DNA of 64,000 bases, taken from the NCBI GenBank assembly GCA_008501825.1, contig QQUA01000023.1, positions 397,994-461,993 of the forward strand. The letters run 5' to 3'. A model generated the notes under the pieces. The model was not told the origin of the DNA and searched no databases. It saw nothing but the letters and a program-made list of their open reading frames with translations. The stretch comes from Planctomycetota bacterium. Its GTDB lineage: Bacteria > Planctomycetota > UBA1135. Of this stretch, positions 33,355 to 64,000 are shown in pieces. Within the stretch, counting starts at the first letter, position 1, and each line of letters starts with the position of its first letter. A program made the position numbers and the translations under genes.

Positions 33355-33362
33355 CACCCTCA

Positions 33363-33400
33363 TCACCCCCGTTCTTTTTTCGGAGCGGGGGTGAATTTTT
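33363..33400 (+). terminator. Rho-independent terminator
   Basis: Stem TCACCCCCG / CGGGGGTGA (33363-33371 / 33386-33394), followed by ATTTTT. Confidence 0.6.
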
Positions 33401-33515
33401 ACCCAAAATTTCAAAATTACATCCGTATGGCGGTTAGGCTTGATTGTGCCTCGAAGCGCGATTCCAACCTCGAGGCATGGGCAATCCCCAGCCCAAACCC
33501 ATCGAATCCCCAAAA

Positions 33516-34457: not shown

Positions 34458-34474
34458 CGGAATTCCTTCCGCGT

Positions 34475-34505
34475 CGCCCCGTTCGCCTTGGCGGACGGGG
34501 CATTT
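34475..34505 (+). terminator. Rho-independent terminator
   Basis: Stem GCCCCGTTCGC / GCGGACGGGGC (one G-U pair) spans 34475-34500, followed by ATTTT. It overlaps the ORF-track start at 34488, which supports the ATG at 34593 as the real start. Confidence 0.6.
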
Positions 34506-34592
34506 TCCGTTTCCGGTCCAGTCGGCCGGCGAAGATCTCGGGATATACTGAATCGGCCCCTTCTCGCTTGGCTTTGCAAAGCTTCCCACACC

Positions 34593-35534
34593 ATGAAAAC
34601 CGCCCTCGTCCTGATTCTGGCCGGACTCGGTTTGAACCATAGCGCCGTTGCGCAAACCGACCTCGGCCCGCTGGATTTACCGAACGCCTTCGCTCCCCTT
34701 CCTTTTTTCGAGGGTTTCGAAACGGCTGCCGGCAACGTTCCGCCTTATATGGCGTTGACCAACTTGGACGGCCTGACCTTGCTGCCGGACGGAGAAGCCT
34801 GGTGTAACATCGGCAACCGAGCGGCTTGCTTGAATCCCTACAGCGGCTCCTATGCCCTGGAAATGGGATTGGAACCGAACTCCACCAACTATCATCTGGT
34901 TCGTAACGCCATGGTGTTGGGCTTGGACGGAAGCAGTCACGTCGGCACGTTCAGCTTGGCTTATTGGGGTTTCGACGGCGGCGAAGAATACAACGCCGTG
35001 GACGGCATCTGGGTCAGCGAAGACGGCTCCGGTTGGTACCAAGTCAGCGGCGCTTGGGACTTCCCCACCGGCTCGTGGACTTATGAAAACTTCGTCGACA
35101 TCACTGGAACGCCGGTCAACCTTCAAGATCGTTTTTATCTTGCCTTCGTTCAGGAAGACAACTTTCCCTATGCAAACGCCGACGGCATCGGTGTCGACGA
35201 TTTAGCCATTCCGGCCCGGCCGCAACTCACGGCTTCGCCTTTGATTGGCGGCCAGTTCGGGCTCCTCAGCCTGGATTCGACCCTGGCCAATGGCGACGCT
35301 CGTTTCCTGATGTCCTTCACCGGATCCGGACCGAGTCCCTATGGCCATTTGACCGTGGACTTGACCCCTCCGATTTGGAATTTGGCCACCGTACCGACCG
35401 ATCAATTCGGAGACGCATTTTTGGCCGACGTGGTTCCCTATGGATTCAGCGGCCGCACTTTGTTCCTGCAAGCCATTGTCAGCGACGGCATCATTTTCGA
35501 AATCACCACTCCTCTCATCGTGGTGGTGCAATGA
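34593..35534 (+). CDS. Secreted MAM-like protein (paralogue 3 of 3)
   Basis: ATG at 34593 with signal peptide MKTALVLILAGLGLNHSAVA|QTDLGPLDLP. It has the same conserved blocks as the other two. Confidence 0.7.
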   Translation: MKTALVLILAGLGLNHSAVAQTDLGPLDLPNAFAPLPFFEGFETAAGNVPPYMALTNLDGLTLLPDGEAWCNIGNRAACLNPYSGSYALEMGLEPNSTNYHLVRNAMVLGLDGSSHVGTFSLAYWGFDGGEEYNAVDGIWVSEDGSGWYQVSGAWDFPTGSWTYENFVDITGTPVNLQDRFYLAFVQEDNFPYANADGIGVDDLAIPARPQLTASPLIGGQFGLLSLDSTLANGDARFLMSFTGSGPSPYGHLTVDLTPPIWNLATVPTDQFGDAFLADVVPYGFSGRTLFLQAIVSDGIIFEITTPLIVVVQ

Positions 35535-40021: not shown

Positions 40022-40145
40022 CTTGGTCGTCCTGCGTCACGAGGTAAGGATTGACCACATTGTAGGCGTCGGTTTTCCCTGCCGTTGTCGTTCTCCATCC
40101 CAAGGGCAAAAATGGGGACGCCGCCTTTCCTCTCGGCCTGCCGCC

Positions 40146-43100
40146 ATGTCCAAACCACCGCCGCACCACCACGAAGACCCTTCGGATGAAGCGGAGCGAT
40201 TGTTCAGCCAGTTTTTGGATGAACAGGATTCCGGCCAGGCCTCCGATTTTGAAAGCTGGGTGACGGCCTATCCGGCTCATCAACAGGCGCTCCGGGCTTT
40301 GCACCAGGACTGGTCGGCGGTTCGCCAGGCCTTCAGTCCAGAGACTGATCCGCTGGCCTCCTCCGATGCCCCTTCGCCCAATTTGCAAGCGCAGCACCTC
40401 CACCGCCTGCTGGCGCGGTTGGCTTCCCAAGGGCCGAAAGACCACCGCTATCAAAAAGCCCGTGAAATCGCCCGCGGCGGCATGGGAGCCATTTACGAGG
40501 TGCAGGACACTCTGCTCCGCCGGGAACTGGCGATGAAGGTCATGCTGCGAAGAGAGGAGCGGCCGCCGCGGCAAGGCAGCAGTCCAAGTGAAGAGGCCTG
40601 CTTGGTTCGGTTTCTGGAAGAAGCGCAAATTACCGGCCAACTGGAGCACCCGGGAATCGTCCCGATTCACGAACTGGGTTTGGCCGCCAACGGCCAGGTG
40701 TTTTTCACCATGCCCCTGGTTCGGGGCCGCAACTTCAAAGAAATCATCGAGGAAGTCCACCGCGGCCATCCCAATTGGAGTTTGCAAAGAGCCATCGGCG
40801 TGATTCTTCACGTTTGTCGAACCATGGCCTATGCCCACGCCAAAGGGGTGGTCCATCGTGATTTGAAACCCCGCAACATCATGGTCGGGCCTTTCGGCGA
40901 GACTTTTGTGATGGATTGGGGTCTGGCCAAAGTGCAAGGCTGGGAGGACCGCCGCGACATTCGCCCGGCCGTGGCGGAACAGAAAAAGCACCCGCCGGTT
41001 CGAACCGAGCGCAGCGAAACTCCCGACCAAAGTCCCGACTCTCCAGTATTGACCGTCGATGGCGACGTCCTCGGCACGCCGGCTTATATGTCGCCGGAAC
41101 AAGCGCAAGGGAAGTTGGAATGGGTCGGCCCGTCTGCAGACATCTACGCCGTCGGTGCCATGCTTTACCACCTGCTATCAGGAGGCCCCCCCTATTTGCC
41201 TCCCGGAACCCAACGCAGCGCCCGGAGCTTATTGGAAGCCCTGCAAGAAGGAGAACCGCCGGCGGTGGAAAGTCTGGCGACTTGGGCACCAGCCGAGTTG
41301 GCAGCGATTTGTGAAAAAGCCATGGCCCGGGCGCCGCAAGACCGCTATGCCGGCATGTCGGAAATGGCCGACGAACTACAAGCCTTTTTAGACGGCCGGG
41401 TGGTTCATGCTTATCAAAGCGGAGCCATCGCCGAGTTTCGCAAATGGGTTCGGCGAAATCGCTTGGCCGCCGGCTCCTTGCTTGCCGCTGCGGTGATCGC
41501 CCTCAGCGGAGCGACGCTGCTGTTTTGGAAGCAAAGCTCGTGGAACGAACGCTTGCAGGATCAAAACAAACTCCTTCAAGCCGCCGGTACTGCGATTGAA
41601 GAAAAAAGCGTTCAATTGCAAGCGACTCTGGAAAAGGTTTCCCGCCTCAGCGATCGCAGCGAAGTGGCGGCCTTGCAGGAATTGGCGCAAGAAAGGTGGG
41701 TGATCCACCCGCGGAACGCCGATCGTTACCAGCAATGGCTACAACGAGCCCAGGCTCTATTGGCCAATCAACCCCTACATCGGAGTTTCCTGAACGAATT
41801 ACGCCAAACCGCCCAACCGATCAACGATCAGCAAAAGGAACAGGATCGACTTCATCATCCACAAGCGGAAAGGTTGCGGAATTTACAACAAGAGCAAGCC
41901 GATTTAATGGCGGCCGACCCGGAATTGTCCGCCGATCGAAAACAGCGGATCGCCGCACGCCTGCAATTTTTAGAACAGGAAATCCCGCGCTTGCAGACCG
42001 TGGTTCAAGAACGGCGCAGTTGGCAATTCGAAAACCCGCAAACCGGACGCCTGCACCATGCCGTGCAACGATTGTTGGCCGACTTGGAGGCCTTGGAAGC
42101 CGGCGAACTCAGCTTGTTCGCCAGAATGCGTTGGGCGTTGGAAGAAGCCCAAGCTTTACGCCCCAACACGATTACTCAGCAATCCGATTTATGGAATCAG
42201 GCAATCGAGGCCATTTCGGACCCGCAGCAACATCCTCAATATCAGGGATTGCAAATCGAGCCGCAAATGGGCTTGGTTCCCCTGGGACCAGATCCTGATA
42301 CTGGCTTCTGGGAATTCGGCCACTGGCTCAGCGGCCAGATTCCGAAAAGGGACTCTCGGGGTAGATTGATCCTGAGTCCGGAATCCAGTCTGGTTCTGGT
42401 TCTCCTGCCGGGTGGCGGCTTCACCATGGGAGCCGATTCCGATCCGAATCAAATCCAGCACGACCCCTTCCGTCAAAGCCAGGAAGGTCCGGCTCATGCA
42501 GTGGAGCTGGCGCCCTTTTTCCTATCCAAGTACGAAATGACTCAGGCCCAATGGGCTCGGATTTGGGGTTCGAACCCGGCCTTCTTCTCCGACCGTTGGC
42601 AGATCCAAGACCCGGTGGACGCCTGGTTGCGGCCGGTGGAGCGGGTTTCCTGGTATCAATGCACCTCGCTCTTGGAACAGGTCGGCCTGCAATTGCCCAC
42701 CGAAGCCCAGTGGGAATACGCAGCCCGGGGAGGGAGTCCCCATGCCTGGTACCCCGGCTCCGACCCCCAGGCGGTTCAGGGGCATGCCAACCTTGCGGAT
42801 CCGAAGCTGCTGGCCAAAGCCGCCTCGGCCGGGTTTCTCCTGGGCCGGAACGGGTCTAAGGCGGCCGAGAGTTGGACCCAAGGGGAGCTCTTGGAAGATC
42901 CCTTCGCCCTACCCTCGCCAGTTGGCAGTTTTTTGCCAAACTCATTGGGATTGTATGACGTGATCGGCAACGTCCGGGAATGGTGCCAGGATGGTCTTGG
43001 GCCTTACCACCTGCCGGTGGAGGGCGCTCATGCCCTGCGCCAGGTGCCCCGCCACCGCCACCGCCGAGTCCACCGGGGCGGCAGCTTTCTGGTTTCCCCC

Positions 43101-43244
43101 TTCGCCGCTCGCAGTGCCCATCGAGGGGTAGACGGCGCCGAAACCCGGGATCCGGACCTCGGACTTCGCCCCGCCAGACCCTTGCTGGCCCGAGATCAAG
43201 TTCAGGGAATTTTCGAGCCGCCGCCGGAAGCTGATACCCGATAA
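40146..43244 (+). CDS. Ser/Thr protein kinase fused to a C-terminal formylglycine-generating-enzyme (FGE/SUMF1)-like domain
   Basis: ATG at 40146 (MSKPPPHHHED). Kinase motifs are HRDLKPRNIMV, DWGLAK and GTPAYMSPEQ. A TM segment follows (LAAGSLLAAAVIALSGATLLFW), then a coiled coil. FGE-like motifs are GGGFTMGAD, PAHAVELAPFFLSKYEMTQAQW, RVSWYQCTSLL, LPTEAQWEYAARGG, YDVIGNVREWCQD and RVHRGGSF. Confidence 0.85.
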   Translation: MSKPPPHHHEDPSDEAERLFSQFLDEQDSGQASDFESWVTAYPAHQQALRALHQDWSAVRQAFSPETDPLASSDAPSPNLQAQHLHRLLARLASQGPKDHRYQKAREIARGGMGAIYEVQDTLLRRELAMKVMLRREERPPRQGSSPSEEACLVRFLEEAQITGQLEHPGIVPIHELGLAANGQVFFTMPLVRGRNFKEIIEEVHRGHPNWSLQRAIGVILHVCRTMAYAHAKGVVHRDLKPRNIMVGPFGETFVMDWGLAKVQGWEDRRDIRPAVAEQKKHPPVRTERSETPDQSPDSPVLTVDGDVLGTPAYMSPEQAQGKLEWVGPSADIYAVGAMLYHLLSGGPPYLPPGTQRSARSLLEALQEGEPPAVESLATWAPAELAAICEKAMARAPQDRYAGMSEMADELQAFLDGRVVHAYQSGAIAEFRKWVRRNRLAAGSLLAAAVIALSGATLLFWKQSSWNERLQDQNKLLQAAGTAIEEKSVQLQATLEKVSRLSDRSEVAALQELAQERWVIHPRNADRYQQWLQRAQALLANQPLHRSFLNELRQTAQPINDQQKEQDRLHHPQAERLRNLQQEQADLMAADPELSADRKQRIAARLQFLEQEIPRLQTVVQERRSWQFENPQTGRLHHAVQRLLADLEALEAGELSLFARMRWALEEAQALRPNTITQQSDLWNQAIEAISDPQQHPQYQGLQIEPQMGLVPLGPDPDTGFWEFGHWLSGQIPKRDSRGRLILSPESSLVLVLLPGGGFTMGADSDPNQIQHDPFRQSQEGPAHAVELAPFFLSKYEMTQAQWARIWGSNPAFFSDRWQIQDPVDAWLRPVERVSWYQCTSLLEQVGLQLPTEAQWEYAARGGSPHAWYPGSDPQAVQGHANLADPKLLAKAASAGFLLGRNGSKAAESWTQGELLEDPFALPSPVGSFLPNSLGLYDVIGNVREWCQDGLGPYHLPVEGAHALRQVPRHRHRRVHRGGSFLVSPFAARSAHRGVDGAETRDPDLGLRPARPLLARDQVQGIFEPPPEADTR

Positions 43245-43446: not shown

Positions 43447-43998
43447 ATGAAGATCTCTCGCTGGCCCGCCCAGCTTGTCGCTCTGGGTCTACTGACCACT
43501 GCCGCCGGCGCCTGCATCGAGGCCCTGGACCTGGCCAAGATGGTGCAGCGCACCGATACCGCGGTTCGTGGCACCATCACCGACGTTCGGACCGTCAAGT
43601 ACACCCCTCCCGGTGACGACCGTCTGATCTACACCATTTTGACCATTGAAGGGGAAGACCTCTTCAGCGGTAAGGAACGCACTTTGGAAGCCGCCTTCCT
43701 CGGCGGCACTTACGAAGGCGATTCCATGATGGTCACCTCCATGCCCGCCGCCGCCGACTACCGGCTCGGTAACAAGGTCGTGGTGTTCAGCGCTCCGGTC
43801 GAAGGCTGGGGCCCGGAAATCGATCGCTGCGTCTACGCCGCCATGGGCGGCATCTTCAAGGAAGTCGCCACCAAGAAGGGGCCGGTCTTCCTCGGCAAGG
43901 GCGAAGGTTTCGCCATTGACCAGAACATGAGCCTGAGCCAACTCCAGGCCGGTATCGCCAAGGCGCTCGAAGCCAAGCAGAAGGAGGTCAACCGATGA
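43447..43998 (+). CDS. Small secreted protein S1 (183 aa) with Cys directly after the signal peptide; partner of metzincin P1
   Basis: ATG at 43447. The signal peptide MKISRWPAQLVALGLLTTAAGA is followed by CIEALDL. There are only two Cys in total (C23, C128). The stop overlaps the P1 start (ATGA). No known family was recognised. Confidence 0.75.
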   Translation: MKISRWPAQLVALGLLTTAAGACIEALDLAKMVQRTDTAVRGTITDVRTVKYTPPGDDRLIYTILTIEGEDLFSGKERTLEAAFLGGTYEGDSMMVTSMPAAADYRLGNKVVVFSAPVEGWGPEIDRCVYAAMGGIFKEVATKKGPVFLGKGEGFAIDQNMSLSQLQAGIAKALEAKQKEVNR

Positions 43999-44027
43999 AA
44001 CGTCTCCCCCTTCGTCTTTTGGCCGGC
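43513..44027 (+). repeat. High-identity repeat, copy 1 (mature S coding region + first 33 nt of protease gene)
   Basis: Aligns colinearly with 45526-46040, with about 15 differences in ~515 nt by eye. It aligns somewhat less well with 61484-61960 and 63538-64000. Confidence 0.85.
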
Positions 44028-45305
44028 TCCGCCTTGGTCGCCATGGCTGCGACCTTGGTCGTGGCGGAGAACTCCCAAGCCTGGAGCACCATCGGCGGCT
44101 CCCTCGGTTTGAATCAGCGGGATTTCCGCATCTACGACAACTTCACCGACTCCTCGGCCCACAACAACACCACCGCCCACGCCAACTGGCCGGGCTACAC
44201 CGAAGTCGAAATGGCTTGTTGGAAAGGCGGCGCCGAATGGGGCAGCCGGGCCTTCGGCGACGGAACCGGTGATTCCACCCAAAGCAACGTCGGCGACGGC
44301 AACGCCAACTTCAACTTCTTCTGGAACGGCGAAGCCTCCGGCGTCGGCGGCACCAACGACAACATCAATTCCGGCCTGAGCGGCAGTAGCGGTGGGGTTC
44401 TGGCCTACACCGAAACGCCGATCGCCGACGGCTGGCGAATTCGCTACTACGAAGCCTGGACCTGGCACGACGGCCCCGGCAGCGTCAGCAGCGGCATCGA
44501 CTTCCAAGGCGTTGCCTGTCATGAACTCGGCCACGCGTTGGGATTGGGTCATACCAGCACCTGGGGTGCCACCATGTACCCGTCGATCAGCGGCACCGGA
44601 GTCGGCACCCGCTCGATTCATTCCGATGATCAGGCCGGGCTGCAAAACGGCATTTACGGTGCTCGGGACGACGCCCGCATTCCCCGCATCGACAGCATCA
44701 GCGGTTCCTTCGCCGGCGGCGGCACCGCGGTCATCACCGGGGCCAACTTCACCACCACCGCCAACCGGGTGTGGCTGAACAGCACCACCCTCGACGGCGG
44801 CCAAGGCGGCGGCGACCCCTACGAAGTCAGCAATCTGGATTCGACCAACGGTCAGACTCAGATTTCCTTCACGGTTCCGAACAGCGGCGTCGAATCCGGC
44901 GGCTTGCACGTCCGCAAGGGCGGTAGCGGGCACGACCGCTTGTCCGAAGGCCATCCCTTCGAGTACGGCGGCGGCAGCTCCAACGACACCATCAACCTGA
45001 GCGGACCGACCAGCGCCAACGTCGGCGATAGCGTCAACTACGACTTCGACAGCGCTCCCGCCAGCTCCCCGTGGTGGTTCTACTACGCCTTGAACGCCAA
45101 CGGGACCACCATCAACGGTCAAGCTTTTGACATCGGCACGCCCTACTTCACCGCCGACACCGGGACCACCGACCCCACCGGCGCGGGCAGTTTCTCCGGC
45201 ACCATCCCGCCGAAGGCGGCAGGGCGCACCGTTTACTTGGAAGTGCGCGTCGACAACGGCGGCAGCACTTTTGACTCCAACATGCTGACCTTGGTAGTGA
45301 ATTAA
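43995..45305 (+). CDS. Secreted matrixin-like zinc metalloprotease P1 (metzincin, M10-like) with IPT/TIG-like and C-terminal beta domains
   Basis: Signal peptide ...AENSQA|WSTIGG. HELGHALGLGHT lies at 44520-44552 (HExxHxxGxxH + Thr) and the ATMYP Met-turn ends at 44582. No cysteine-switch propeptide was seen. An IPT-like region follows (PRIDSISGSFAGGGTAVITGANFTTTANRVWLN). Confidence 0.85.
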   Translation: MKRLPLRLLAGSALVAMAATLVVAENSQAWSTIGGSLGLNQRDFRIYDNFTDSSAHNNTTAHANWPGYTEVEMACWKGGAEWGSRAFGDGTGDSTQSNVGDGNANFNFFWNGEASGVGGTNDNINSGLSGSSGGVLAYTETPIADGWRIRYYEAWTWHDGPGSVSSGIDFQGVACHELGHALGLGHTSTWGATMYPSISGTGVGTRSIHSDDQAGLQNGIYGARDDARIPRIDSISGSFAGGGTAVITGANFTTTANRVWLNSTTLDGGQGGGDPYEVSNLDSTNGQTQISFTVPNSGVESGGLHVRKGGSGHDRLSEGHPFEYGGGSSNDTINLSGPTSANVGDSVNYDFDSAPASSPWWFYYALNANGTTINGQAFDIGTPYFTADTGTTDPTGAGSFSGTIPPKAAGRTVYLEVRVDNGGSTFDSNMLTLVVN

Positions 45306-45324
45306 TTCGCTTCCTCCTTGGGAC

Positions 45325-45346
45325 CCGGGCCGCCTGAGCGGTCCGG
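45325..45346 (+). terminator. Weak hairpin after P1
   Basis: CCGGGCCGC-CTGA-GCGGTCCGG (one G-U pair), followed by TTCCTTTGTT. Confidence 0.3.
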
Positions 45347-45459
45347 TTCCTTTGTTAGGATGCCGAGCGCCCCTCGGCGGTTACACCGGCGAGGGCCTCT
45401 TGCTAGTTACCCCCCAAAACCCATCTTCCTCCCGAGAACGAACCCCAGGAGACACCTTG

Positions 45460-46011
45460 TTGAAATCCCTCAGATGGCCTGCCGTGTTGGTGGCAGGCAC
45501 TTTGCTGACCGCCGGTGCGGTGGCCTGCATCGAGGCCTTGGACTTGGCCAAGATGGTGCAGCGCACCGATACCGCGGTTCGCGGCACCATTACCGACGTT
45601 CGGACCGTCAAGTACACCCCTCCCGGTGACGACCGTCTGATCTACACCATTTTGACCATTGAAGGGGAAGACCTCTTCAGCGGTAAGGAACGCACTTTGG
45701 AAGCCGCCTTCCTCGGCGGGACCTACGAAGGCGATTCCATGATGGTCACCTCCATGCCCGCCGCTTCCGACTACCGGCTCGGCAACAAGGTCGTGGTGTT
45801 CAGCGCTCCGGTTGAAGGCTGGGGCCCCGAAATCGATCGCTGCGTCTACGCCGCCATGGGCGGCATCTTCAAGGAAGTCGCCACCAAGAAGGGGCCGGTC
45901 TTCCTCGGCAAGGGCGAAGGTTTCGCCATTGACCAAAACATGAGCCTGAGCCAACTCCAGGCCGGCATTGCCAAGGCGCTCGAAGCCAAGCAGAAGGAGG
46001 TCAACCGATGA
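45460..46011 (+). CDS. Small secreted protein S2 (183 aa), N-terminal-Cys family
   Basis: There is no in-frame ATG. A TTG at 45460 (or 45457) gives (M)KSLRWPAVLVAGTLLTAGAVA|CIEALDL, the same length as S1. The mature part differs from S1 by one residue (AAADY -> AASDY). Confidence 0.7.
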   Translation: MKSLRWPAVLVAGTLLTAGAVACIEALDLAKMVQRTDTAVRGTITDVRTVKYTPPGDDRLIYTILTIEGEDLFSGKERTLEAAFLGGTYEGDSMMVTSMPAASDYRLGNKVVVFSAPVEGWGPEIDRCVYAAMGGIFKEVATKKGPVFLGKGEGFAIDQNMSLSQLQAGIAKALEAKQKEVNR

Positions 46012-46040
46012 AACGTCTCCCCCTTCGTCTTTTAGCCGGC
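45526..46040 (+). repeat. High-identity repeat, copy 2
   Basis: See 43513-44027. Confidence 0.85.
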
Positions 46041-47309
46041 GGTTTGGTCCTGTCCGCCGCCAGCACCATGGTGGTGATGGAACAGGCCCAAGCCTATAGC
46101 ACCCTGGGTCACAGCCTAGGTTTGGCTCAACGGGACGTCCGCCTCTACGACGAGTTCGGTGCCGGCGCCCACACCAATTCCACCCCCGAGCCGAACATGC
46201 CCGGCTACACCGAAGCCGCCTTGGCGGTTTGGAAGGGAGTGGCGGAATGGGGCCACACCAGCTTCGGCGACGGTTCCGGTGACCCGCTGCAGAGCAACAT
46301 CGGTGACGGTGGCGCCAACTTCAACCCGCTTTGGAACGGCTTCGCCTCCGGCGAGGGTCCGAGCAGCGGCAACATCACCGCAGGTTTGACCGGCTCCTCC
46401 GGCGGCGTGTTGGCCTACATGACCGGCGGCGGCAGCGGCTGGCGGATTTACTTCTACGTCACCGCCTGGAACTGGAAGGACAACCCCAACAGCGCCAGCG
46501 GCGGTTTCGACATTCAAGCCGTCATGTGCCACGAGTACGGCCACGCCCTTGGCTTGGGTCACTCCAGCAGCAGCCAAGCCACCATGTACCCGAGCATCGG
46601 CACCAGCAGCACCAAGGAACGCTCGATCAACAGCGACGACCAAAATGGTGTGCAAGCGGTCTACGGCGCCCTCGACCCGACCAAGATTCCCTACATCAGC
46701 AGCGTCACCGGTTCCACTTCTCCTGGCGGAACCGCGGTGGTCAACGGCTCCAACTTCACCAATACCGCCAACCGGATCTGGTTCAACAGCTCCACTTTGG
46801 ACGGCAACCAAACCGGCGGCGATCCTTACGAGATCAGCGGCTTGGACTCCACCAACGGCCAGACTCAGATCTCCTTCACCGTGCCGAGCAGTGGCATTGA
46901 AGACGGTGGCCTTCACGTCCGCAAGGGCGGCAGCGGCCACGATCGTTTGTCCAACGGCTGGCCCTTCGACTACGACGGCGCCACCACCAACACCATCTTC
47001 CTGAGCGGTCCGACCAGCACTCAAATCAACCAGACCGAGTCCTGGACCTTCACCGGTGCTCCGGCCAGCTCGCCGTGGTGGTTCTACTACAGCTTCAACG
47101 CCAACGGCACCACCATCAACGGCCAGCCCTTTGACATCGGCTCGCCCTACTTCACCGCAGGCACCGGCATGACCGACGCCGGCGGCAACGGCTTCTTCAC
47201 CAAGACCATCCCCCCCGGCGGAGCCGGACGGACGGCTTACTTGGAAGTTCGCTGCGACAGCGGCGGCACCACCTACGATTCCAACATGCTGACTTTGGTC
47301 ATCCAGTAA
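46008..47309 (+). CDS. Secreted matrixin-like zinc metalloprotease P2
   Basis: ATGA overlap with S2. Carries HEYGHALGLGHS and ATMYP, with the same domain order as P1. The catalytic domain is clearly diverged from that of P1. Confidence 0.85.
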   Translation: MKRLPLRLLAGGLVLSAASTMVVMEQAQAYSTLGHSLGLAQRDVRLYDEFGAGAHTNSTPEPNMPGYTEAALAVWKGVAEWGHTSFGDGSGDPLQSNIGDGGANFNPLWNGFASGEGPSSGNITAGLTGSSGGVLAYMTGGGSGWRIYFYVTAWNWKDNPNSASGGFDIQAVMCHEYGHALGLGHSSSSQATMYPSIGTSSTKERSINSDDQNGVQAVYGALDPTKIPYISSVTGSTSPGGTAVVNGSNFTNTANRIWFNSSTLDGNQTGGDPYEISGLDSTNGQTQISFTVPSSGIEDGGLHVRKGGSGHDRLSNGWPFDYDGATTNTIFLSGPTSTQINQTESWTFTGAPASSPWWFYYSFNANGTTINGQPFDIGSPYFTAGTGMTDAGGNGFFTKTIPPGGAGRTAYLEVRCDSGGTTYDSNMLTLVIQ

Positions 47310-47400: not shown

Positions 47401-48702
47401 ATGCAAATGCTCCCCCGTCTTTGCCTCGGCCTGGGTCTTTTCGCCGCGGCGGCCACGTTGACCGTCTCTGAAGAATTACCGGCTTATTCGACCATCGGCC
47501 ACAATCTGGGCACGAATCAAAGAGACTTTCGGCTCTACGATTTGTTTTCCGCCTCGGCCCACAGCAATCAGAACTACCACGCCAACTTTCCGGGCTATAA
47601 CGAAGTCGCTTTAGCGATTTGGAAAGGCGGCCAGGAATGGGGAGCTCGTACCTATGGCGACGGCAGCGGTGACCCGACTCAGTCGAACATCGGCGACGGC
47701 AATGCCAACTTCAATCCAATTTGGAATGGTTTTGCCACCGGCAACGGTACCGGCACTACCAACATCGTCGGCTCCGTATCCGGTTCTTCCGGTGGAGTTT
47801 TGGCGTTTATGACCGGTTACTACAGCGGTTGGAACATCAAGTTCTACACCGAGGCTTGGAACTGGAAGGACAATCCCAACTCCGCCAGCGGTGGCATGGA
47901 CATTCAAGGAGTGATGTGCCACGAGTACGGACACGCTCTTGGCTTGGGACACTCCAGCAATTGGAACGCCACCATGTATCCCTCCACCGGGGGCGGCAGC
48001 ACCAAAGAGCGCTCGGTTCACAGCGACGATCAAGCCGGCATTCAAAGTATCTATGGAGTGCGCGACGACGCCCGCATGCCGCGGATCGACGACGTCACCG
48101 GATCTTTCGTTCCCGGCGGCACCGTGGTGGTGACCGGAGTCAATTTCACCGACGTGGCCAACCGGGTTTGGATGAACAACACCATTTTGGACAGCATGGA
48201 CGCCGGCGGCGATCCTTATGAAATCGCCGACTTGGATTCCACCAACGGCCAAACCCAACTCTCCTTTACTTTGCCGGCCTACGGTGTGGAAGCCGGTTCC
48301 ATTCACGTCCGCAAAGGTGGAAGCGGACACGATCGCCTGTCGGAAGGACATCCTTTTCCCTTTGATCAAGGCAGCGTGACCGACACCATTCTTTTAGAAG
48401 GTCCGACTAGCGCCCCCGCCGGCGGCCAAGTCAGTTATTCCTGGACCGGCGCGCCGGGCAACTCGCCTTGGTGGCTTTACTGGAGCTTCTCCAACGCCGG
48501 TAGCGTTATTAACGGTCAAAGTTTCGACGTCGGCAGTCCCTACAACACAGTGGCGACCGGGGACAATCCTTCTTCGGGAAGTTCCAGCTACACCGCATAC
48601 CTGCCGGGCGGCGCCTCCGGTCTCAACGTTTATCTGGAACTACGAACCGATTTCGACGGCCGCAGCTACGACTCCAACGTCCTGTTGTTGAGCATTCAGT
48701 AA
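47401..48702 (+). CDS. Secreted matrixin-like zinc metalloprotease P3 (orphan, no S gene upstream)
   Basis: Signal peptide MQMLPRLCLGLGLFAAAATLTVSEELPA|YST. Carries HEYGHALGLGHS and ATMYP. It is preceded by only 91 nt of intergenic sequence containing the P2 hairpin. Confidence 0.85.
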   Translation: MQMLPRLCLGLGLFAAAATLTVSEELPAYSTIGHNLGTNQRDFRLYDLFSASAHSNQNYHANFPGYNEVALAIWKGGQEWGARTYGDGSGDPTQSNIGDGNANFNPIWNGFATGNGTGTTNIVGSVSGSSGGVLAFMTGYYSGWNIKFYTEAWNWKDNPNSASGGMDIQGVMCHEYGHALGLGHSSNWNATMYPSTGGGSTKERSVHSDDQAGIQSIYGVRDDARMPRIDDVTGSFVPGGTVVVTGVNFTDVANRVWMNNTILDSMDAGGDPYEIADLDSTNGQTQLSFTLPAYGVEAGSIHVRKGGSGHDRLSEGHPFPFDQGSVTDTILLEGPTSAPAGGQVSYSWTGAPGNSPWWLYWSFSNAGSVINGQSFDVGSPYNTVATGDNPSSGSSSYTAYLPGGASGLNVYLELRTDFDGRSYDSNVLLLSIQ

Positions 48703-48732: not shown

Positions 48733-48758
48733 GGAGGGAAGCCCAGCGGCTTCCCTCC
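48733..48758. terminator. Hairpin between P3 and the trailer end of the CRISPR array
   Basis: 11-bp perfect stem GGAGGGAAGCC / GGCTTCCCTCC with loop CAGC, followed by AGGTTGTTT. Given the convergent transcription here, it could act in both directions. Confidence 0.45.
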
Positions 48759-48783: not shown

Positions 48784-51700
48784 CGGGTCAGCCCCGCATG
48801 CGCGGGGAACAGCCGAGCCTGGCCGATTTATTCAGCCTACAATTCGGGTCAGCCCCGCATGCGCGGGGAACAGCGGCGTCAGCCTCCCAGTGCCCGTAAA
48901 CATCGCGGGTCAGCCCCGCATGCGCGGGGAACAGCAACACGTTTTTCATAATTAGTTTCGCCAATTCGGGTCAGCCCCGCATGCGCGGGGAACAGCGGCG
49001 TCAGCCTCCCAGTGCCCGTAAACATCGCGGGTCAGCCCCGCATGCGCGGGGAACAGTCAGACATTCCTTTGATAGATAAAGGAACTACCGGGTCAGCCCC
49101 GCATGCGCGGGGAACAGCGGCGTCAGCCTCCCAGTGCCCGTAAACATCGCGGGTCAGCCCCGCATGCGCGGGGAACAGCAGGGCGGCCATTTTTTTGGAT
49201 TTAGTATTGACGGGTCAGCCCCGCATGCGCGGGGAACAGTTAAAAGCTCCAAGGCGCCGGCATTATCTAGGCGGGTCAGCCCCGCATGCGCGGGGAACAG
49301 TTGCGCATTCACATTCTAAACCATTCCCAACACGGGTCAGCCCCGCATGCGCGGGGAACAGGCTTTTTATTCGCCTCGTCCCAATACACATTTTGGGTCA
49401 GCCCCGCATGCGCGGGGAACAGTAAGCCCATCCCGCCGTGGCCAATCAATCCAGCGGGTCAGCCCCGCATGCGCGGGGAACAGTTCGCGCACGCATGCCA
49501 AAACCTCAAAAACGACGGGTCAGCCCCGCATGCGCGGGGAACAGTCAGTTCAAGTTACGCCCAGGTTTACGCAAGACGGGTCAGCCCCGCATGCGCGGGG
49601 AACAGACTGCCGCGACTTCATTCAACGTCCACGACGACGGGTCAGCCCCGCATGCGCGGGGAACAGTTGCAGTTCGCCGAGGGCGACAACAATGACCACG
49701 GGTCAGCCCCGCATGCGCGGGGAACAGCAGGGCGGCCATTTTTTTGGATTTAGTATTGACGGGTCAGCCCCGCATGCGCGGGGAACAGGCTGTACGGGAA
49801 GCTATGGAGGATCCGATGGACGGGTCAGCCCCGCATGCGCGGGGAACAGACTGGGTTGCCGGCGCTGTTTCATCCGGTTCACGGGTCAGCCCCGCATGCG
49901 CGGGGAACAGGCAATTGGACCACACGAGTCCCACCAGAGGCGCGGGTCAGCCCCGCATGCGCGGGGAACAGCGAATCGTCGCCAGTTTCCTCCTCTTCTT
50001 CGCCGGGTCAGCCCCGCATGCGCGGGGAACAGGTGGAGCCTCGCTTTTTCTTCGCTTCGGCCGCCGGGTCAGCCCCGCATGCGCGGGGAACAGCACAAAG
50101 CAAGCGCAGTGCTTAAAGCATCCTGCGGGTCAGCCCCGCATGCGCGGGGAACAGGGTTTGCTTGCCGCGCGGGATTGCCCGGCACCCGGGTCAGCCCCGC
50201 ATGCGCGGGGAACAGAATGACGCGGTTATTGAGCCGCTGATTCAAGGCGGGTCAGCCCCGCATGCGCGGGGAACAGTTCCCGCCAGTTTTTCACAATTAC
50301 CCTAAATACGGGTCAGCCCCGCATGCGCGGGGAACAGAGGCAAGGCCACTGTAGCCATTATTTATCCTCCGGGTCAGCCCCGCATGCGCGGGGAACAGAG
50401 TGTACGTAGAGTTTCAATCTTCCCGGGTCTCGGGTCAGCCCCGCATGCGCGGGGAACAGTAAGTAATATCTTTCTAGGACATTGTGTAATACGGGTCAGC
50501 CCCGCATGCGCGGGGAACAGATGGATCGCCGAGTAGTAAATGCCGAAGAATACGGGTCAGCCCCGCATGCGCGGGGAACAGAAATGTAAGATAAGGTAGC
50601 TCTATCGCCTAGCCGGGTCAGCCCCGCATGCGCGGGGAACAGGGCGACGGCACCGTTCGGCCACGTCAAAAGCCGCGGGTCAGCCCCGCATGCGCGGGGA
50701 ACAGTCGGATTGATCCCAACGGATGGAGTCTCGAGGCGGGTCAGCCCCGCATGCGCGGGGAACAGGAGAAAGGGGAAAGGACGCCATCGGCTGGCAGCGG
50801 GTCAGCCCCGCATGCGCGGGGAACAGTGGCGGTCGCGAAGGAGTGGACCGAAAAGATTCGGGTCAGCCCCGCATGCGCGGGGAACAGTTTGATCGCGTTT
50901 TTCATTGCACTCCTCCCGCCGGGTCAGCCCCGCATGCGCGGGGAACAGTCACTATCCCAGGTGTACTCGTTTTCTGGATCCGGGTCAGCCCCGCATGCGC
51001 GGGGAACAGTGGTTTGCCTCCCCCTCATCCAACCATTCATCCGGGTCAGCCCCGCATGCGCGGGGAACAGGCGGACCTGATGGGGGCCTCTTACCAAGAT
51101 GTCGGGTCAGCCCCGCATGCGCGGGGAACAGGCACTAGTATTTACATTGGTATCACTATCTGCTGGGTCAGCCCCGCATGCGCGGGGAACAGCTCTGCCT
51201 GCGCTCGGCTCGGCGCCAAAGATTCGGGTCAGCCCCGCATGCGCGGGGAACAGCACCTGTGCGTTTTTAAGTGTCCCAAGTAATCCGGGTCAGCCCCGCA
51301 TGCGCGGGGAACAGTTTGCAGACAGACTCAATAAATTGGGCGACGTCGGGTCAGCCCCGCATGCGCGGGGAACAGGCCGAAATAGTCGGTAATCAGGTTT
51401 ACAAGTACGGGTCAGCCCCGCATGCGCGGGGAACAGGAGGTCGGAAGACTGGGGGAGGAGGCGGACTTCGGGTCAGCCCCGCATGCGCGGGGAACAGTCA
51501 AATCCACAGGCCCAAGCAACGGCTCACAGCGGGTCAGCCCCGCATGCGCGGGGAACAGTCTAACAGCTTCTCTTCAGTTCTATTCATTGTCGGGTCAGCC
51601 CCGCATGCGCGGGGAACAGGAATTAGAAGTGTGTTCAAACCCTGCCAAAGACGGGTCAGCCCCGCATGCGCGGGGAACAGGACTACCTGGGCTGACGCTG

Positions 51701-52290
51701 TATCTTCCAGACCGGGTCAGCCCCGCATGCGCGGGGAACAGACATATTCGGGCGCGATCAATTGCGCGTTTTTCGGGTCAGCCCCGCATGCGCGGGGAAC
51801 AGAAAGGTTTTTTCACCAAACACAATAGATAAATCGGGTCAGCCCCGCATGCGCGGGGAACAGAGCGCACTCGCCGGCCCCGGGCAAAGCTGAATCGGGT
51901 CAGCCCCGCATGCGCGGGGAACAGGAATTTGTCGCCAGATATTCGATGATGCACGTCGGGTCAGCCCCGCATGCGCGGGGAACAGTGTCCATCGGTTTTG
52001 TCCCGACCAAGGTCCGACGGGTCAGCCCCGCATGCGCGGGGAACAGTTTCCGGCGTCGGCGCAACTGGAGTGCCAACACGGGTCAGCCCCGCATGCGCGG
52101 GGAACAGTGGAAAAGGAAGCGCCGTTGTGACCGATCCGCCGGGTCAGCCCCGCATGCGCGGGGAACAGTTTCGGTGGAAAAAACTACCGGAAATCTACGA
52201 CGGGTCAGCCCCGCATGCGCGGGGAACAGGGAGATATCGGCCCTGCCCAAGCCGGGATTAACGGGTCAGCCCCGCATGCGCGGGGAACAG
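48784..52290 (-). CRISPR. Type I-E CRISPR array, 58 repeats / 57 spacers
   Basis: The 29-nt repeat on the plus strand is CGGGTCAGCCCCGCATGCGCGGGGAACAG. Its reverse complement, CTGTTCCCCGCGCATGCGGGGCTGACCCG, resembles the E. coli I-E repeat GAGTTCCCCGCGCCAGCGGGGATAAACCG and has the same CCCCGC/GCGGGG stem. The period is 61 nt, with 56 spacers of 32 nt and one of 33 nt. The 28-nt core read as invariant in all 58 copies by eye. Orientation is inferred from the repeat, the adjacent cas2-cas1 genes and the leader at the high-coordinate end. Confidence 0.97.
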
Positions 52291-52355
52291 TCCATTCCGA
52301 AGTCTACAAAAATGAAGGGTTTACGAAAACCATTATCTGGCACCAAAATTGCCGG
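52291..52355 (-). promoter_or_regulatory. CRISPR leader (65 nt between cas2 stop and first repeat)
   Basis: A comparatively AT-rich segment (minus strand: CCGGCAATTTTGGTGCCAGATAATGGTTTTCGTAAACCCTTCATTTTTGTAGACTTCGGAATGGA) lies directly upstream of repeat 58. No promoter was mapped. Confidence 0.6.
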
Positions 52356-53647
<1,292 letters not shown>

Positions 53648-53650
53648 GGT

Positions 53651-54313
53651 TTAGTCAGCTCTCCGCACAAGGATCATCCCGCAGCCAAAAGCGCGAGATG
53701 GACCCAATCCAGTACATAAGGTGCGAATCAACTTGCTTGGATCTTTGACTTCCATGCGCCCTTCAAAATCCACTTGGCCGAATCGAATCTGGTGCTTTTG
53801 CTTTCGACTGTTTTTCTGAAACTTTACCACCCTGTAGCCCTCCACGCGAACATCGATCAAACGAAACCCATTCCTTTCGGACCGAGCCTCTAACCATGTC
53901 TCTCCAGCCCCCTGAGCGTGTTCAATGCGATTCAGATCCTTTGAAGTCTTTCCTTTTGTACGAGCGAGTACCTTAGCATGCATTACCACATCGTGTCGGA
54001 CATGGCCTTGCCGAAGCACCGGGTTTGCACGTAGGCGGAAGTGGAGCATCTGGCCTTCCGAAAGCTTTGGCTGAAAGGGTTTAGTCTCCACGTTCCAAAG
54101 ACCGGAATCATCAACGCAAGGACGAGGACCCAGAATCAGCAGCGTCGGCCTCCCGCTTCCCATATCCAACCGAAAGAGGAAGTCACGGGACGCCTCTTTC
54201 GGGAGATCTTGTAGCCGCCACACTTCTTGGTGCAAAGCGTAAGGCTGGCCGATCTGCCAGAAACGATTGTGCTCGGGCGCTCGATCACTAAGCATTAGTC
54301 GAGACAGATACAT
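53651..54313 (-). CDS. cas6e: Cas6e (CasE) crRNA endoribonuclease
   Basis: ATG at 54313 (TGATG overlap with the cas5 stop). MYLSRLMLS...ALHQEVWRL and the C-terminal GLGPSRAFGCGMILV parallel E. coli CasE (MYLSKV...LHQGLWHLF, GIGPAKSMGCGLL). The ORF-track start at 54388 lies inside cas5. Confidence 0.9.
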   Translation of the reverse strand: MYLSRLMLSDRAPEHNRFWQIGQPYALHQEVWRLQDLPKEASRDFLFRLDMGSGRPTLLILGPRPCVDDSGLWNVETKPFQPKLSEGQMLHFRLRANPVLRQGHVRHDVVMHAKVLARTKGKTSKDLNRIEHAQGAGETWLEARSERNGFRLIDVRVEGYRVVKFQKNSRKQKHQIRFGQVDFEGRMEVKDPSKLIRTLCTGLGPSRAFGCGMILVRRAD

Positions 54314-58203: not shown

Positions 58204-58211
58204 CTTTTTTC

Positions 58212-61417: not shown

Positions 61418-61966
61418 ATGAAGTTAGCCAAGGGCTTGGCCACAGTTTTGGCCGGCAGCTTACTGGTCGGTGGAGCTTTCGCCTGCATCGAAGCTCTCGA
61501 CCTGGCAAAGATGGTGGACCGCACCGACACCGCGGTTCGTGGCACCATCACCGACGTTCGCACCGTTAAGTACACCCCCCCTGGTGACGACCGTCTGATC
61601 TACACCATTTTGACCATTGAAGGGGAAGACCTCTTCACCGGTAAGGAACGCACTCTGGAAGCCGCCTTCCTCGGCGGAACCTACGAAGGCGATTCCATGA
61701 TGGTCACCTCCATGCCCGCTGCCTCCGACTACCGGCTTGGCAACAAGGTCGTGGTGTTCAGTGCTCCGGTCGAAGGCTGGGGCCCCGAAATCGATCGTTG
61801 CGTCTACGCCGCCATGGGCGGCATCTTCAAGGAAGTCGCCACCAAGAAGGGGCCGGTCTTCCTCGGCAAGGGCGAAGGTTTCGCCATTGACCAAAACATG
61901 AGCCTGAGCCAACTCCAGGCCGGCATCGCCAAGGCTCTTGAAGCCAAGCAGAAGGAGGTGAAGTGA
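61418..61966 (+). CDS. Small secreted protein S3 (182 aa), N-terminal-Cys family
   Basis: MKLAKGLATVLAGSLLVGGAFA|CIEALDL. The mature part is nearly identical to S1/S2. Its stop overlaps the P4 ATG (TGATG). Confidence 0.75.
   Translation: MKLAKGLATVLAGSLLVGGAFACIEALDLAKMVDRTDTAVRGTITDVRTVKYTPPGDDRLIYTILTIEGEDLFTGKERTLEAAFLGGTYEGDSMMVTSMPAASDYRLGNKVVVFSAPVEGWGPEIDRCVYAAMGGIFKEVATKKGPVFLGKGEGFAIDQNMSLSQLQAGIAKALEAKQKEVK
61484..61960 (+). repeat. High-identity repeat, copy 3
   Basis: Colinear with 43513-43990 at roughly 93-95 % identity by eye. It includes perfect runs of more than 50 nt, e.g. GGTGACGACCGTCTGATCTACACCATTTTGACCATTGAAGGGGAAGACCTCTTCA. Confidence 0.8.
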
Positions 61967-63276
61967 TGATTCGCCGTCCCCTTCGTCTTTTGGCCGGCGC
62001 GGCTTTGATTGCCGGCGCCTCCACCTTGGTGGTCGCGGAAGAATCCCAAGCCTGGAGCACCATTGGCGGCTCCTTGGGTCTGACCCAACGGGACTTCCGG
62101 ATTTACGACAACTTCGCCGATTCCGCCTCTCACAACAACAACACGGCCGATGCTAACTGGCCGGGCTACACCCAGATCGAGCTGGCCTGCTGGAAGGGCG
62201 GCGCCGAGTGGGGAAGCCGCTTGTTCGGTGACGGCTCCGGCGACTCGACTCAAGCTGGAGTTGGCGACGGTAAGGCCAACTTCAACTTCTTCTGGAACGG
62301 CGAAGCCTCCGGAATCGGCAGCACCAACGACAACATCAACTCCGCGCTTGGTGGCGGCAGCGGTGGCGTTTTGGCGTTCACCGAAACCCCGATCAGCAAT
62401 GGTTGGCGGATTCGCTACTACGAAGATTGGACCTGGCACGACGGCCCCGGCAGCGTTTCCGGCGGCATCGACTTCCAGGGTGTTGCCTGCCACGAGCTGG
62501 GCCACGCCTTGGGTCTCGGCCACTCCACGAACACCGGCGCCACCATGTACCCGTCGATTAGTGGTAGCGGCGTTGGCGAGCGTTCGATCAACAGTGACGA
62601 CCAAGCCGGCATCCAGCAGGGCATCTACGGCTTCCGCGACGACAACACGCTTCCGCGTATTGCCGACCTGACCGGTTCCTTGGCCGCCGGCGGCACCGCC
62701 GTCATCACCGGCGCCAACTTCACCACCACCGCCAACCGAGTGTGGCTGAACAGCACCACTTTGAACGGCGGCAACAGTGGCGGTGAGCCCTACGAGATCA
62801 GCAACCTGGATTCGACCAACGGTCAGACCCAGATCTCCTTCACCGTGCCGGGCAGTGGCATCGAGTCCGGCGGCATTCACGTCCGCAAGGGCGGCAGCGG
62901 CAACGATCGCCTGTCCGAAGGTCACCCCTTCGACTACGGCGGCGGCAGTTCCACCGACACCATCTTGCTGACCGGTCCGACCAGCACTCAGATCAACAAC
63001 ACCGAGACCTGGACCTTCAGCAACGCTCCGGCCAGCTCGCCGTGGTGGTTCTACTACAGCTTCAACACCAACGGCACCACCATCAACGGTCAGCCCTTCG
63101 ACATCGGTGATCCGATCGTGCAAGTAGGCACCGGATCGACCAATGCTTCCGGAGTCGGCAGCTTCACCAAGACCATTCCCGCCGCAGGCGCCGGTCTCAC
63201 CGCTTACTTGGAAGTGCGCGTCGACAGTGGTGGCAGCACTTACGATTCCAACATGCTGACCCTGGTCATCCAGTAA
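61966..63276 (+). CDS. Secreted matrixin-like zinc metalloprotease P4
   Basis: ATG at 61966 (a GTG at 61963 is also possible). Carries HELGHALGLGHS and ATMYP. The N-terminal half is closest to P1, and the C-terminal ~130 aa are closest to P2. Confidence 0.85.
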   Translation: MIRRPLRLLAGAALIAGASTLVVAEESQAWSTIGGSLGLTQRDFRIYDNFADSASHNNNTADANWPGYTQIELACWKGGAEWGSRLFGDGSGDSTQAGVGDGKANFNFFWNGEASGIGSTNDNINSALGGGSGGVLAFTETPISNGWRIRYYEDWTWHDGPGSVSGGIDFQGVACHELGHALGLGHSTNTGATMYPSISGSGVGERSINSDDQAGIQQGIYGFRDDNTLPRIADLTGSLAAGGTAVITGANFTTTANRVWLNSTTLNGGNSGGEPYEISNLDSTNGQTQISFTVPGSGIESGGIHVRKGGSGNDRLSEGHPFDYGGGSSTDTILLTGPTSTQINNTETWTFSNAPASSPWWFYYSFNTNGTTINGQPFDIGDPIVQVGTGSTNASGVGSFTKTIPAAGAGLTAYLEVRVDSGGSTYDSNMLTLVIQ

Positions 63277-63471: not shown

Positions 63472-64000
63472 ATGAAACCTCGCCCTTTGTTTTACGGCCT
63501 GCTGTTGAGCGGGTTTTTGGCCTCGGCCGCCGGCGCTTGCATTGAAGCTCTGGACTTGACCAAGATGGTGCAACGCACCGATACCGCGGTTCGTGGCACC
63601 ATCACCGACGTTCGGACCGTCAAGTACACCCCTCCCGGTGACGACCGTCTGATCTACACCATTTTGACCATTGAAGGGGAAGACCTCTTCAGCGGGAAGG
63701 AACGCACTTTGGAAGCCGCCTTCCTCGGCGGCACCTACGAAGGCGATTCCATGATGGTCACCTCCATGCCCGCCGCCTCCGACTACCGGCTTGGCAACAA
63801 GGTCGTGGTGTTCAGCGCTCCGGTCGAAGGCTGGGGCCCCGAAATCGATCGTTGCGTCTACGCCGCCATGGGCGGCATCTTCAAGGAAGTCGCCACCAAG
63901 AAGGGGCCGGTCTTCCTCGGCAAGGGCGAAGGTTTCGCCATTGACCAAAACATGAGCCTGAGCCAACTCCAGGCCGGCATCGCCAAGGCGCTCGACGCCA
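63472..64000 (+). CDS. Small secreted protein S4, 3' end cut by window edge
   Basis: ATG at 63472. MKPRPLFYGLLLSGFLASAAGA|CIEALDLTKMVQRTDTAVRGT... The frame is open to the window end, which is why it is missing from the ORF track. Confidence 0.75.
   Translation, partial: MKPRPLFYGLLLSGFLASAAGACIEALDLTKMVQRTDTAVRGTITDVRTVKYTPPGDDRLIYTILTIEGEDLFSGKERTLEAAFLGGTYEGDSMMVTSMPAASDYRLGNKVVVFSAPVEGWGPEIDRCVYAAMGGIFKEVATKKGPVFLGKGEGFAIDQNMSLSQLQAGIAKALDA
63538..64000 (+). repeat. High-identity repeat, copy 4 (truncated by window)
   Basis: Colinear with 43513 onward, and the same direct orientation as the other three copies. Confidence 0.8.

Follow-up and report, generated by a model that had tools for sequence, protein, structure and literature searches.

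The 64,000-nucleotide stretch of a Planctomycetota bacterium genome analyzed here (assembly GCA_008501825.1, contig QQUA01000023.1, positions 397,994 to 461,993; hereafter the window) carries a tandem family of gene cassettes in which a small gene for a secreted, putative lipoprotein (S) is located immediately upstream of a gene for a secreted metalloprotease (P). The mature portions of the four S copies are nearly identical, whereas their signal peptides and the adjoining P genes have diverged strongly. The explanation we prefer, with a probability of roughly 0.7, is that interlocus gene conversion has copied the mature-S tract from one old tandem S-P operon to another. Ordinary purifying selection acts on S besides conversion. 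The initial annotation of this DNA offered gene conversion only as a secondary suggestion, but the island of low synonymous divergence, the breakpoints that bound it, and the behavior of the family in other genomes now point to it as the main cause.

Copies were located by tblastn searches of the window with S1 and P1 as queries, together with a reading of open reading frames (ORFs) and start sites. Four S copies and four P copies were recovered, and the cassettes are composed of the following features.

43447..43998, plus strand: S1, a 183-aa precursor with no Pfam or NCBIfam match.
43447-43512, plus strand: signal peptide of S1, ending in AAGA directly before the Cys in a lipobox-like context; mature S1 starts with the Cys codon at 43513.
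43511..44020, plus strand: putatively homogenized tract of cassette 1, comprising mature S1 and the first ~26-33 nucleotides of P1.
43995..45305, plus strand: P1, a 436-aa secreted matrixin-type zinc metalloprotease (PF00413, E=3.8e-13, above the cut-off), carrying HELGHALGLGH and a Met-turn (MYPS), with an Ig/TIG-like region at its C-terminus.
45457..46011, plus strand: S2, with a TTG start behind GGAGA; its mature part has 99.4% protein identity to S1.
46008..47309, plus strand: P2, a 433-aa matrixin paralog 64% identical to P1, with no terminator-like site after it.
47401..48702, plus strand: P3, a 433-aa matrixin paralog with no S upstream.
61418..61966, plus strand: S3, 182 aa, the most divergent of the S copies, with 10 of its 14 unique sites located in the first 172 nucleotides of the mature region.
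61966..63273, plus strand: P4, a 435-aa matrixin paralog 77% identical to P1.
63472..64000, plus strand: S4, which runs past the window end.
~45524-46033, ~61480-61990, and ~63518-64000: equivalent tracts of cassettes 2 to 4, from the change-point scan and alignment.

Mature S begins at the Cys codons at 43513, 45526, 61484, and 63538 for S1 to S4, respectively. S4 is complete in the source genome, where a cluster look-up and a protein search give a full protein that ends in ...ALDAKQKEVK. It is followed by a fifth protease gene (DWQ01_21635) beyond the window end, and the locus tags run from DWQ01_21555 to DWQ01_21635. A sixth, distant protease paralog is carried on another contig of the same metagenome-assembled genome (MAG).

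The similarity between the S copies has well-defined limits. As the initial annotation reported, S1 and S2 differ at only 15 of 515 nucleotides counted from the Cys codon, and divergence then sets in abruptly at nucleotide 516, which lies 33 nucleotides inside P. Its description of all but one of these differences as synonymous third-position changes is correct with regard to synonymy (14 of the 15) but not to codon position, given that two of the synonymous changes are at the first position of Leu codons (CTG/TTG). Within the 462 nucleotides of mature S1 and S2 that were compared, there are 14 differences, 13 of which are synonymous, with a single GCC to TCC substitution (Ala81Ser). The mature S tracts of all four copies share 94-97% DNA identity and encode proteins that are 97.5-99.4% identical, and the best match outside this genome does not exceed 76%.

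To the left of this tract, the signal-peptide DNA of the copies is 41-55% identical in ungapped comparisons, versus 19-33% for unrelated upstream DNA. The signal peptides had been called impossible to align. This captures their strong divergence but is slightly overstated for S1 and S2, which have 13 of 22 signal-peptide residues in common, about the level seen for P1 and P2. To the right, the proteases are 59-77% identical in protein among the pairs of P1 to P4, and the strong divergence initially noted between P1 and P2 is borne out by their 64% identity. Because these flanks are homologous but old, the island appears to have been pasted into pre-existing cassettes.

A two-breakpoint likelihood scan of cassette pairs places the low-divergence segment of S1 and S2 at 43511-44020, with 2.7% mismatches inside and 32.9% outside. 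The log-likelihood gain for this change-point model is 120, whereas the maximum among 50 permutations, which served as the null for this pair, is 8.8. One such segment is present in all six cassette pairs (gain of 70-143 versus a permutation maximum of no more than 8.8), and its ends nearly coincide throughout, those of the other pairs being no more than a few tens of nucleotides away from the S1/S2 points.

Rates of synonymous (dS) and nonsynonymous (dN) change, given here as Nei-Gojobori estimates, separate the two genes equally well. Pairs of S copies have dS values of 0.13-0.25 and dN values of 0.003-0.014 (dN/dS of 0.02-0.09), and pairs of P copies have dS values of 0.65-1.28 and dN values of 0.16-0.38 (dN/dS of 0.21-0.47). 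Similar dN/dS values for the two genes would have been at odds with the initial annotation, and the values for S are clearly lower. The more telling contrast is in dS itself, where S falls three- to five-fold below the adjoining P (0.13-0.25 versus 0.65-0.80). This holds for S1 and S2 (0.126 versus 0.672 for P1 and P2; Fisher p=1.5e-10), for S1 and S3 (0.237 versus 0.798 for P1 and P4; p=6e-8), and for S2 and S3 (0.251 versus 0.660 for P2 and P4; p=3e-5). Fourfold sites show the same contrast, with differences at 8 of 81 positions between S1 and S2 and at 55 of 135 between P1 and P2 (p=6e-7). The contrast is, if anything, understated, because the dS of P is near saturation (proportion of synonymous differences, pS, of 0.43-0.61). 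Codon bias was considered as a cause of the low dS of S and was ruled out, since the GC content at third positions (0.76-0.81 in S and 0.80-0.83 in P1, P2, and P4) and the effective number of codons (34-37 in both) are alike in the two genes. Selection at the protein level cannot lower dS and therefore cannot explain the three- to five-fold lower dS of S.

As a baseline for the family, S was found to adjoin P in about 45 further MAG loci from Planctomycetota, where most genomes have a single module. The adjacency holds down to S identities of 27-31%. S1 and its ortholog in the Bin8 MAG are separated by a dS of 0.85 and a dN of 0.25, and the values for P1 and its Bin8 ortholog are 0.84 and 0.30. 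Among close single-copy ortholog pairs, dN/dS is 0.05-0.15 for S in most clades and 0.07-0.27 for P. The ratio of dS in S to dS in P is ~0.5-1.5 in 24 close single-copy ortholog comparisons, with a minimum of 0.47, versus 0.19-0.38 in the window. Likewise, module pairs whose proteases have an identity of 0.6-0.7 have S identities of 0.54-0.76, whereas pairs in the window combine a P identity of 0.645 with an S identity of 0.994, or 0.656 with 0.981. Two other genomes with tandem S-P-S-P arrangements (L049 and L053) show no homogenization, with S paralogs that are 53-62% identical versus 63-64% for P. A two-copy genome (L005/L006) was examined as a possible second instance of the pattern and was set aside as a plain recent duplication (dS of 0.31 between its P copies and 0.20 between its S copies).

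Because orthologous S diverges in step with P across the family, S is not inherently invariant, nor is it inherently slow to change at synonymous sites. The comparison with related genomes that the initial annotation had proposed has thus been made, and S normally diverges together with P. The annotation had also suggested that S might be held constant to fit a conserved surface such as the metzincin cleft. This is not supported as a general rule, given that the identity of S rises and falls with that of P across 44 modules (r=0.82, 944 comparisons). Strong purifying selection on mature S had been proposed as well. Selection is indeed evident, since nonsynonymous changes account for about 6 of the roughly 38 on the S1-S4 tree (dN/dS ~0.05), but its strength is ordinary for the S family. 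The near-invariance of S in the window does not indicate exceptionally strong constraint. This case carries a warning with regard to method. A high ratio of synonymous to nonsynonymous change between paralogs was read as exceptional constraint, whereas orthologs reveal recent shared ancestry combined with ordinary constraint.

These observations are consistent with a model wherein the cassettes of a tandem S-to-P operon family are old duplicates, whose signal peptides, intergenic DNA, and P genes have a synonymous divergence of 0.65-1.3. An island of ~510 bp, from the Ala-Cys codons at the cleavage site to ~30 nucleotides into P, would then have been overwritten among the four copies, and its last common ancestor would be three to five times younger than that of the flanks. 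After conversion, purifying selection (dN/dS ~0.05) would have let almost only synonymous changes build up. We infer that the tracts are confined to this block as the flanks are now too diverged for heteroduplex formation. In addition, conversions that homogenized the functionally diverging proteases would presumably have been selected against and lost. Such confinement corresponds to the idea of "islands of divergence" that remain despite conversion (PMC3728101).

Several patterns within the S tracts and the proteases hint at mosaicism, which would support conversion. All 6 of the sites unique to S1 are confined to the 3' 60% of the tract (p ~0.003 by hand calculation over 37 variable sites, uncorrected for multiple tests). 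The few informative splits conflict, with four grouping S1 with S2 against S3 with S4 and one grouping S1 with S3 against S2 with S4. P1 and P4 are the closest protease pair, yet S1 and S3 are among the most distant S pairs. Within the proteases, P2 and P4 have a pS of 0.12-0.22 in codons 301-380 versus 0.37-0.71 elsewhere, and none of 200 permutations was as extreme in a segment test.

A separate observation concerns nucleotides 316-410 of mature S (43828-43922 in S1). All four copies are invariant along these 95 nucleotides, and the spacing of the 37 variable sites would predict a shorter stretch. A more recent conversion patch or a region of extra constraint may be responsible.

Four other explanations for the uniformity of S were considered. 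In one, the cassettes are equally old throughout and purifying selection alone keeps mature S so constrained that only synonymous changes survive. The low dN/dS of S (0.02-0.09) and the 13 synonymous changes among the 14 S1/S2 differences are what this explanation predicts, but we find it barely credible. The dS of S is three to five times below that of the adjoining P at equal codon bias, orthologous S diverges as fast as P (dN 0.25, dS 0.85), the tandem S copies in L049 and L053 are just 53-62% identical, and no family-wide suppression of synonymous change in S is seen in the ortholog comparisons. Recent duplication is unlikely but is the strongest of these competitors. It could involve whole cassettes, whose proteases and signal peptides then evolved very fast, or a mature-S segment newly inserted ahead of older proteases. 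The initial annotation had raised a very recent duplication with sharp boundaries, and the tract ends are indeed sharp. Moreover, the L005/L006 genome has a plain recent S-P duplicate (S dS of 0.20, P dS of 0.31), and the window itself holds an island-like paralog pair of similar age at 18.5 and 20.2 kb (dS of 0.148). However, the copies are not very recent (dS of 0.13-0.25) and their flanks are old homologs, fast protein evolution cannot push the dS of P to 0.65-1.3, and the pairing of S with P is ancestral. The signal peptides of S1 and S2 also keep their old homology (13 of 22 residues), so S was already present in both cassettes. An in-frame replacement of a resident S is gene conversion by definition.

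Another possibility is that the proteases are the odd part, such that the S genes are young duplicates while recombination exchanged P and the signal peptides for divergent alleles of other lineages, with S serving as a homology arm. The mosaic nature of the P genes, in which P2 and P4 share a younger C-terminal segment, would fit such a history, as would dN/dS values for the P paralogs (0.21-0.47) that are above those of most ortholog pairs. We nonetheless judge it to be very unlikely. P1 to P4 cluster together in a neighbor-joining tree, apart from every other sampled genome, and such a history would call for independent replacements on both sides of every S, all with junctions no more than ~30 nucleotides from the same two points. 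A single short conversion tract in each copy is the simpler account. Finally, the likeness of the S copies could have been inflated by repeat collapse, consensus polishing, or path switching during assembly. The sequence does come from a MAG, and the copies share exact runs of 95-173 nucleotides that approach or exceed usual k-mer sizes. Yet the copies differ at 14-27 sites along the tract, almost all of them synonymous, and an artifact would not give such a pattern. Neither the reading frames nor the overlaps with P are disrupted, the distinct flanks are likewise intact, and the source contig is 479 kb long. Thus, an assembly artifact is highly improbable.

Several points weigh against gene conversion of the mature-S tract. 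The case is built on only four copies from one MAG. No close strain was found in the genome and metagenome collections searched, so no conversion event has been directly seen. A scan of metagenome contigs for exact DNA matches to an invariant 35-mer of S gave no match, and a protein-guided scan of such contigs gave no relative closer than 73%. The signals of mosaicism within S rest on few sites. The exact runs of 95-173 nucleotides that the S copies have in common are also a concern, because assembler path switching could have occurred at such runs, in which case the pairing of S with its flanks and P, and the fine mosaic pattern, are not fully certain. Lastly, the coincidence of the tract ends is explained by inference alone.

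Concerted evolution is well known, and its long persistence in prokaryotes has been documented (PMC6053082). Like tufA/tufB and the rRNA operons, the S paralogs within this genome are far closer to each other than to their orthologs. As in other bacterial cases, there is a sharp-ended island of identity with diverged flanks and purifying selection on the homogenized part. In contrast to tuf and rRNA, the converted unit would consist of the mature part of S plus the first ~30 nucleotides of the next gene, with the signal peptide of S itself excluded. Also unlike these examples, the tract adjoins paralogs that are kept different, and S is a lineage-specific secreted protein rather than a core translation gene. 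The sub-genic form of concerted evolution proposed here is unusual, and it occurs in an uncharacterized protease-partner module. Conversion and selection would oppose each other across one operon, such that one gene is homogenized while its translationally coupled neighbor is kept diverse. Our example illustrates how sub-genic conversion tracts can shape bacterial paralog families.

P1 to P4 match the Pfam family PF00413 (Peptidase_M10) with 50-60 bits versus a cut-off of 24, and alignment shows that they carry HExxHxxGxxH and the Met-turn. By these sequence hallmarks, P is a member of the M10 matrixin family. Its closest solved relatives, found by matches to PDB sequences, are MMP-7, -12, -13, and -8 and karilysin. 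As read from the sequence, the catalytic domain directly follows the signal peptide, and there is no cysteine-switch pro-domain.

S has no Pfam, NCBIfam, or PDB-sequence relative. Its family comprises about 275 clusters of proteins that are all ~180 aa long and all from Planctomycetota. In most members, a Cys follows an A-x-A or lipobox-like motif, whereas distant members lack this Cys. AlphaFold2 models of S are confident (pLDDT of 89.6 with the precursor and of 92.3 with the mature protein) and consist mostly of beta strands, which form a barrel flanked by a short helix at the N-terminus and a long one at the C-terminus. S is tentatively predicted to form an OB-fold barrel. Foldseek searches of the PDB with S gave only weak matches to OB folds (E>=0.013, TM<=0.41), which include uS12, uS17, PriB, and TIMP-2. 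The highest TM-score (0.41; rmsd 4.6 A over 112 columns, E ~0.06) is for TIMP-2 bound to MMP-13 (2e2d chain C; TIMP-2 is also found as 1br9). A search of viral folds in BFVD returned noise only.

The closest described system is found in Tannerella forsythia, where lipoprotein inhibitors called potempins are encoded immediately upstream of, and co-transcribed with, secreted KLIKK peptidases (PMC9890683). The potempin PotA is an OB-fold beta-barrel that inhibits karilysin, which is an M10 matrixin among the KLIKK peptidases (PMC9890683). S-P modules resemble this arrangement in that a small ORF with a signal peptide and a lipobox-like motif lies directly ahead of a secreted peptidase gene, which it overlaps or approaches to within 5 bp, as is maintained in about 45 loci, and in that several such operons can occur in one genome. 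However, a profile search of PDB sequences with S at E<=10 gave unrelated proteins only and revealed no sequence homology to potempins. Mature S is larger (161 aa versus 98-132) and has N-terminal and long C-terminal helices. The two systems are also mirror images, as potempins share signal peptides while their mature parts are 4-14% identical, whereas the S copies are alike in the mature part and unlike in their signal peptides. Thus, the likeness of S to potempins is an analogy and not a demonstrated membership.

S may also share certain characteristics with TIMPs, which have matrixin partners, an OB-fold N-domain, and a mature protein that starts with Cys. The fold matches to TIMPs are weak and are accompanied by matches to generic OB folds, among them uS12 and PriB, and there is no Pfam TIMP match. 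TIMPs have a disulfide framework (Cys1-Cys70, Cys3-Cys99) and a free N-terminal Cys. This framework is absent from S, which has two Cys residues in its mature form, with the second replaced in several members and Cys1 gone in distant ones. Furthermore, Cys1 of S is in a lipobox-like context and would be acylated, which would block the alpha-amino zinc chelation used by TIMPs. A third point of comparison is provided by the serralysin inhibitors Inh/AprI (PF02974), which are periplasmic proteins rather than lipoproteins. Like S, they are small secreted beta-barrels encoded beside a metzincin gene, but S has no Pfam match and differs in size and gene order.

By analogy with these systems, S could be an inhibitor or latency factor of the pro-domain-less protease P, a proposal to which we give somewhat less than an even chance. 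In its favor are the widely kept S-to-P adjacency, the ATGA overlap with its internal Shine-Dalgarno sequence, the confident beta-barrel model that matches only OB folds in the PDB, and the distant S branch that neighbors an M14 metallopeptidase. Our enthusiasm is dampened by the fold matches, all of which are weak (E>=0.013, TM<=0.41), by the absence of PotA from the top 50 fold matches, and by the lack of any sequence match to a known inhibitor family. In this role, identical S copies would serve as a shared, dosage-matched pool for five to six different proteases. A literature search found no specific description of a planctomycete matrixin/lipoprotein pair. We can extend the proposal, although in this form it is doubtful. 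S might found a family, so far undescribed, of lipoproteins with an OB fold that inhibit bacterial matrixins or serve as their latency partners. This family would be universal in a clade of uncultured Planctomycetota, and selection, not just neutral conversion, might here keep four copies identical as a dosage-matched "master-key" pool that guards the cell against five to six diversifying proteases. If this is true, then the system would be the mirror image of the potempin system, in which each inhibitor is specific. With about 275 clusters, no Pfam entry, and ties to M10 matrixins and, in one branch, to M14 peptidases, the S family is a candidate new class of metalloprotease inhibitors in bacteria.

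The M14-linked branch is distant (38-41% identity, no Cys). Its S gene is located directly after a gene for an M14 zinc-carboxypeptidase lipoprotein and before a FeS_assembly_P (DUF59) gene, at L045 5133-6894, L048 5109-6877, and in L046, representing at least two distinct MAGs. By gene adjacency, the S fold is linked to a second, unrelated metallopeptidase family. In a separate clade of single-copy modules (L012, L013, L020, and L051), both genes evolve fast, with dN/dS values of 0.22-0.50 for S and 0.52-0.73 for P versus ~0.1 elsewhere, which constitutes a correlated rate acceleration of the partners.

In each cassette, the stop codon of S overlaps the start codon of P as ATGA or TGATG (ATGA for S1/P1), and a Shine-Dalgarno-like AAGGAGGT is present within the last S codons, ahead of the P start. 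Because of this overlap and the internal Shine-Dalgarno-like sequence, P is likely to be translationally coupled to S. S2 indeed has no ATG start, as was originally noted. Instead, there are in-frame TTG codons at 45457 and 45460, which are 4-7 nucleotides past GGAGA. The NCBI annotation puts the start of S2 further downstream, at MLVAG... Three terminator-like hairpins are found in the array.

45325..45346, plus strand: terminator-like hairpin 3' of P1.
48733-48758: terminator-like hairpin after P3.
63304-63331: terminator-like hairpin after P4.

The presence of these hairpins after P1, P3, and P4, but not after P2, suggests three transcription units, namely S1-P1, S2-P2-P3, and S3-P4. P3 is probably co-transcribed with S2-P2. 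S-P-P arrangements, in which a second protease lacks its own S, occur independently at L033 6001-9323 and L038 57-3420, where the two P copies are 55% identical (dS ~1.5).

A CRISPR-Cas block of type I-E sits between P3 and S3, inside the tandem S-P array. The CRISPR array (48785-52292) has 58 copies of a 29-nucleotide repeat, GGGTCAGCCCCGCATGCGCGGGGAACAG, with 32-nucleotide spacers, several of which appear to be duplicated near the 48.8-49.8 kb end. The cas genes occupy 52356-60908 on the minus strand and are cas2, cas1, cas6e, cas5e, cas7e, cse2, cse1, and cas3, with names taken from the type I-E gene order and ORF sizes and not from family searches.

The paralog pair at 18548-19660 and 20245-21357 (plus strand) codes for two secreted proteins of 370 aa with no Pfam match. 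The two copies are 94.8% identical over 1184 nucleotides (dS of 0.148, dN of 0.029). Their identity extends from the exact ATG to ~70 nucleotides past the stop codon, after a hairpin, and the upstream DNA is unrelated. This pair is about the same age as S1, S2, and S4.

Directly upstream of S1, an ORF of 1073 aa (40023-43244, plus strand) has, by eye, a Ser/Thr kinase-like N-terminal part and a C-terminal part resembling SUMF1 (formylglycine-generating enzyme). The region 32173-35534 (plus strand) holds three paralogs in tandem, ORFs of 337-393 aa that have no Pfam match, and the middle ORF ends in a sequence (34281-34445) that resembles the C-terminal 58 residues of P1 at 38% identity. Further upstream, at 26316-27833 and 27870-29312 (plus strand), tandem paralogous genes with 73% DNA identity code for B12-binding radical SAM enzymes.

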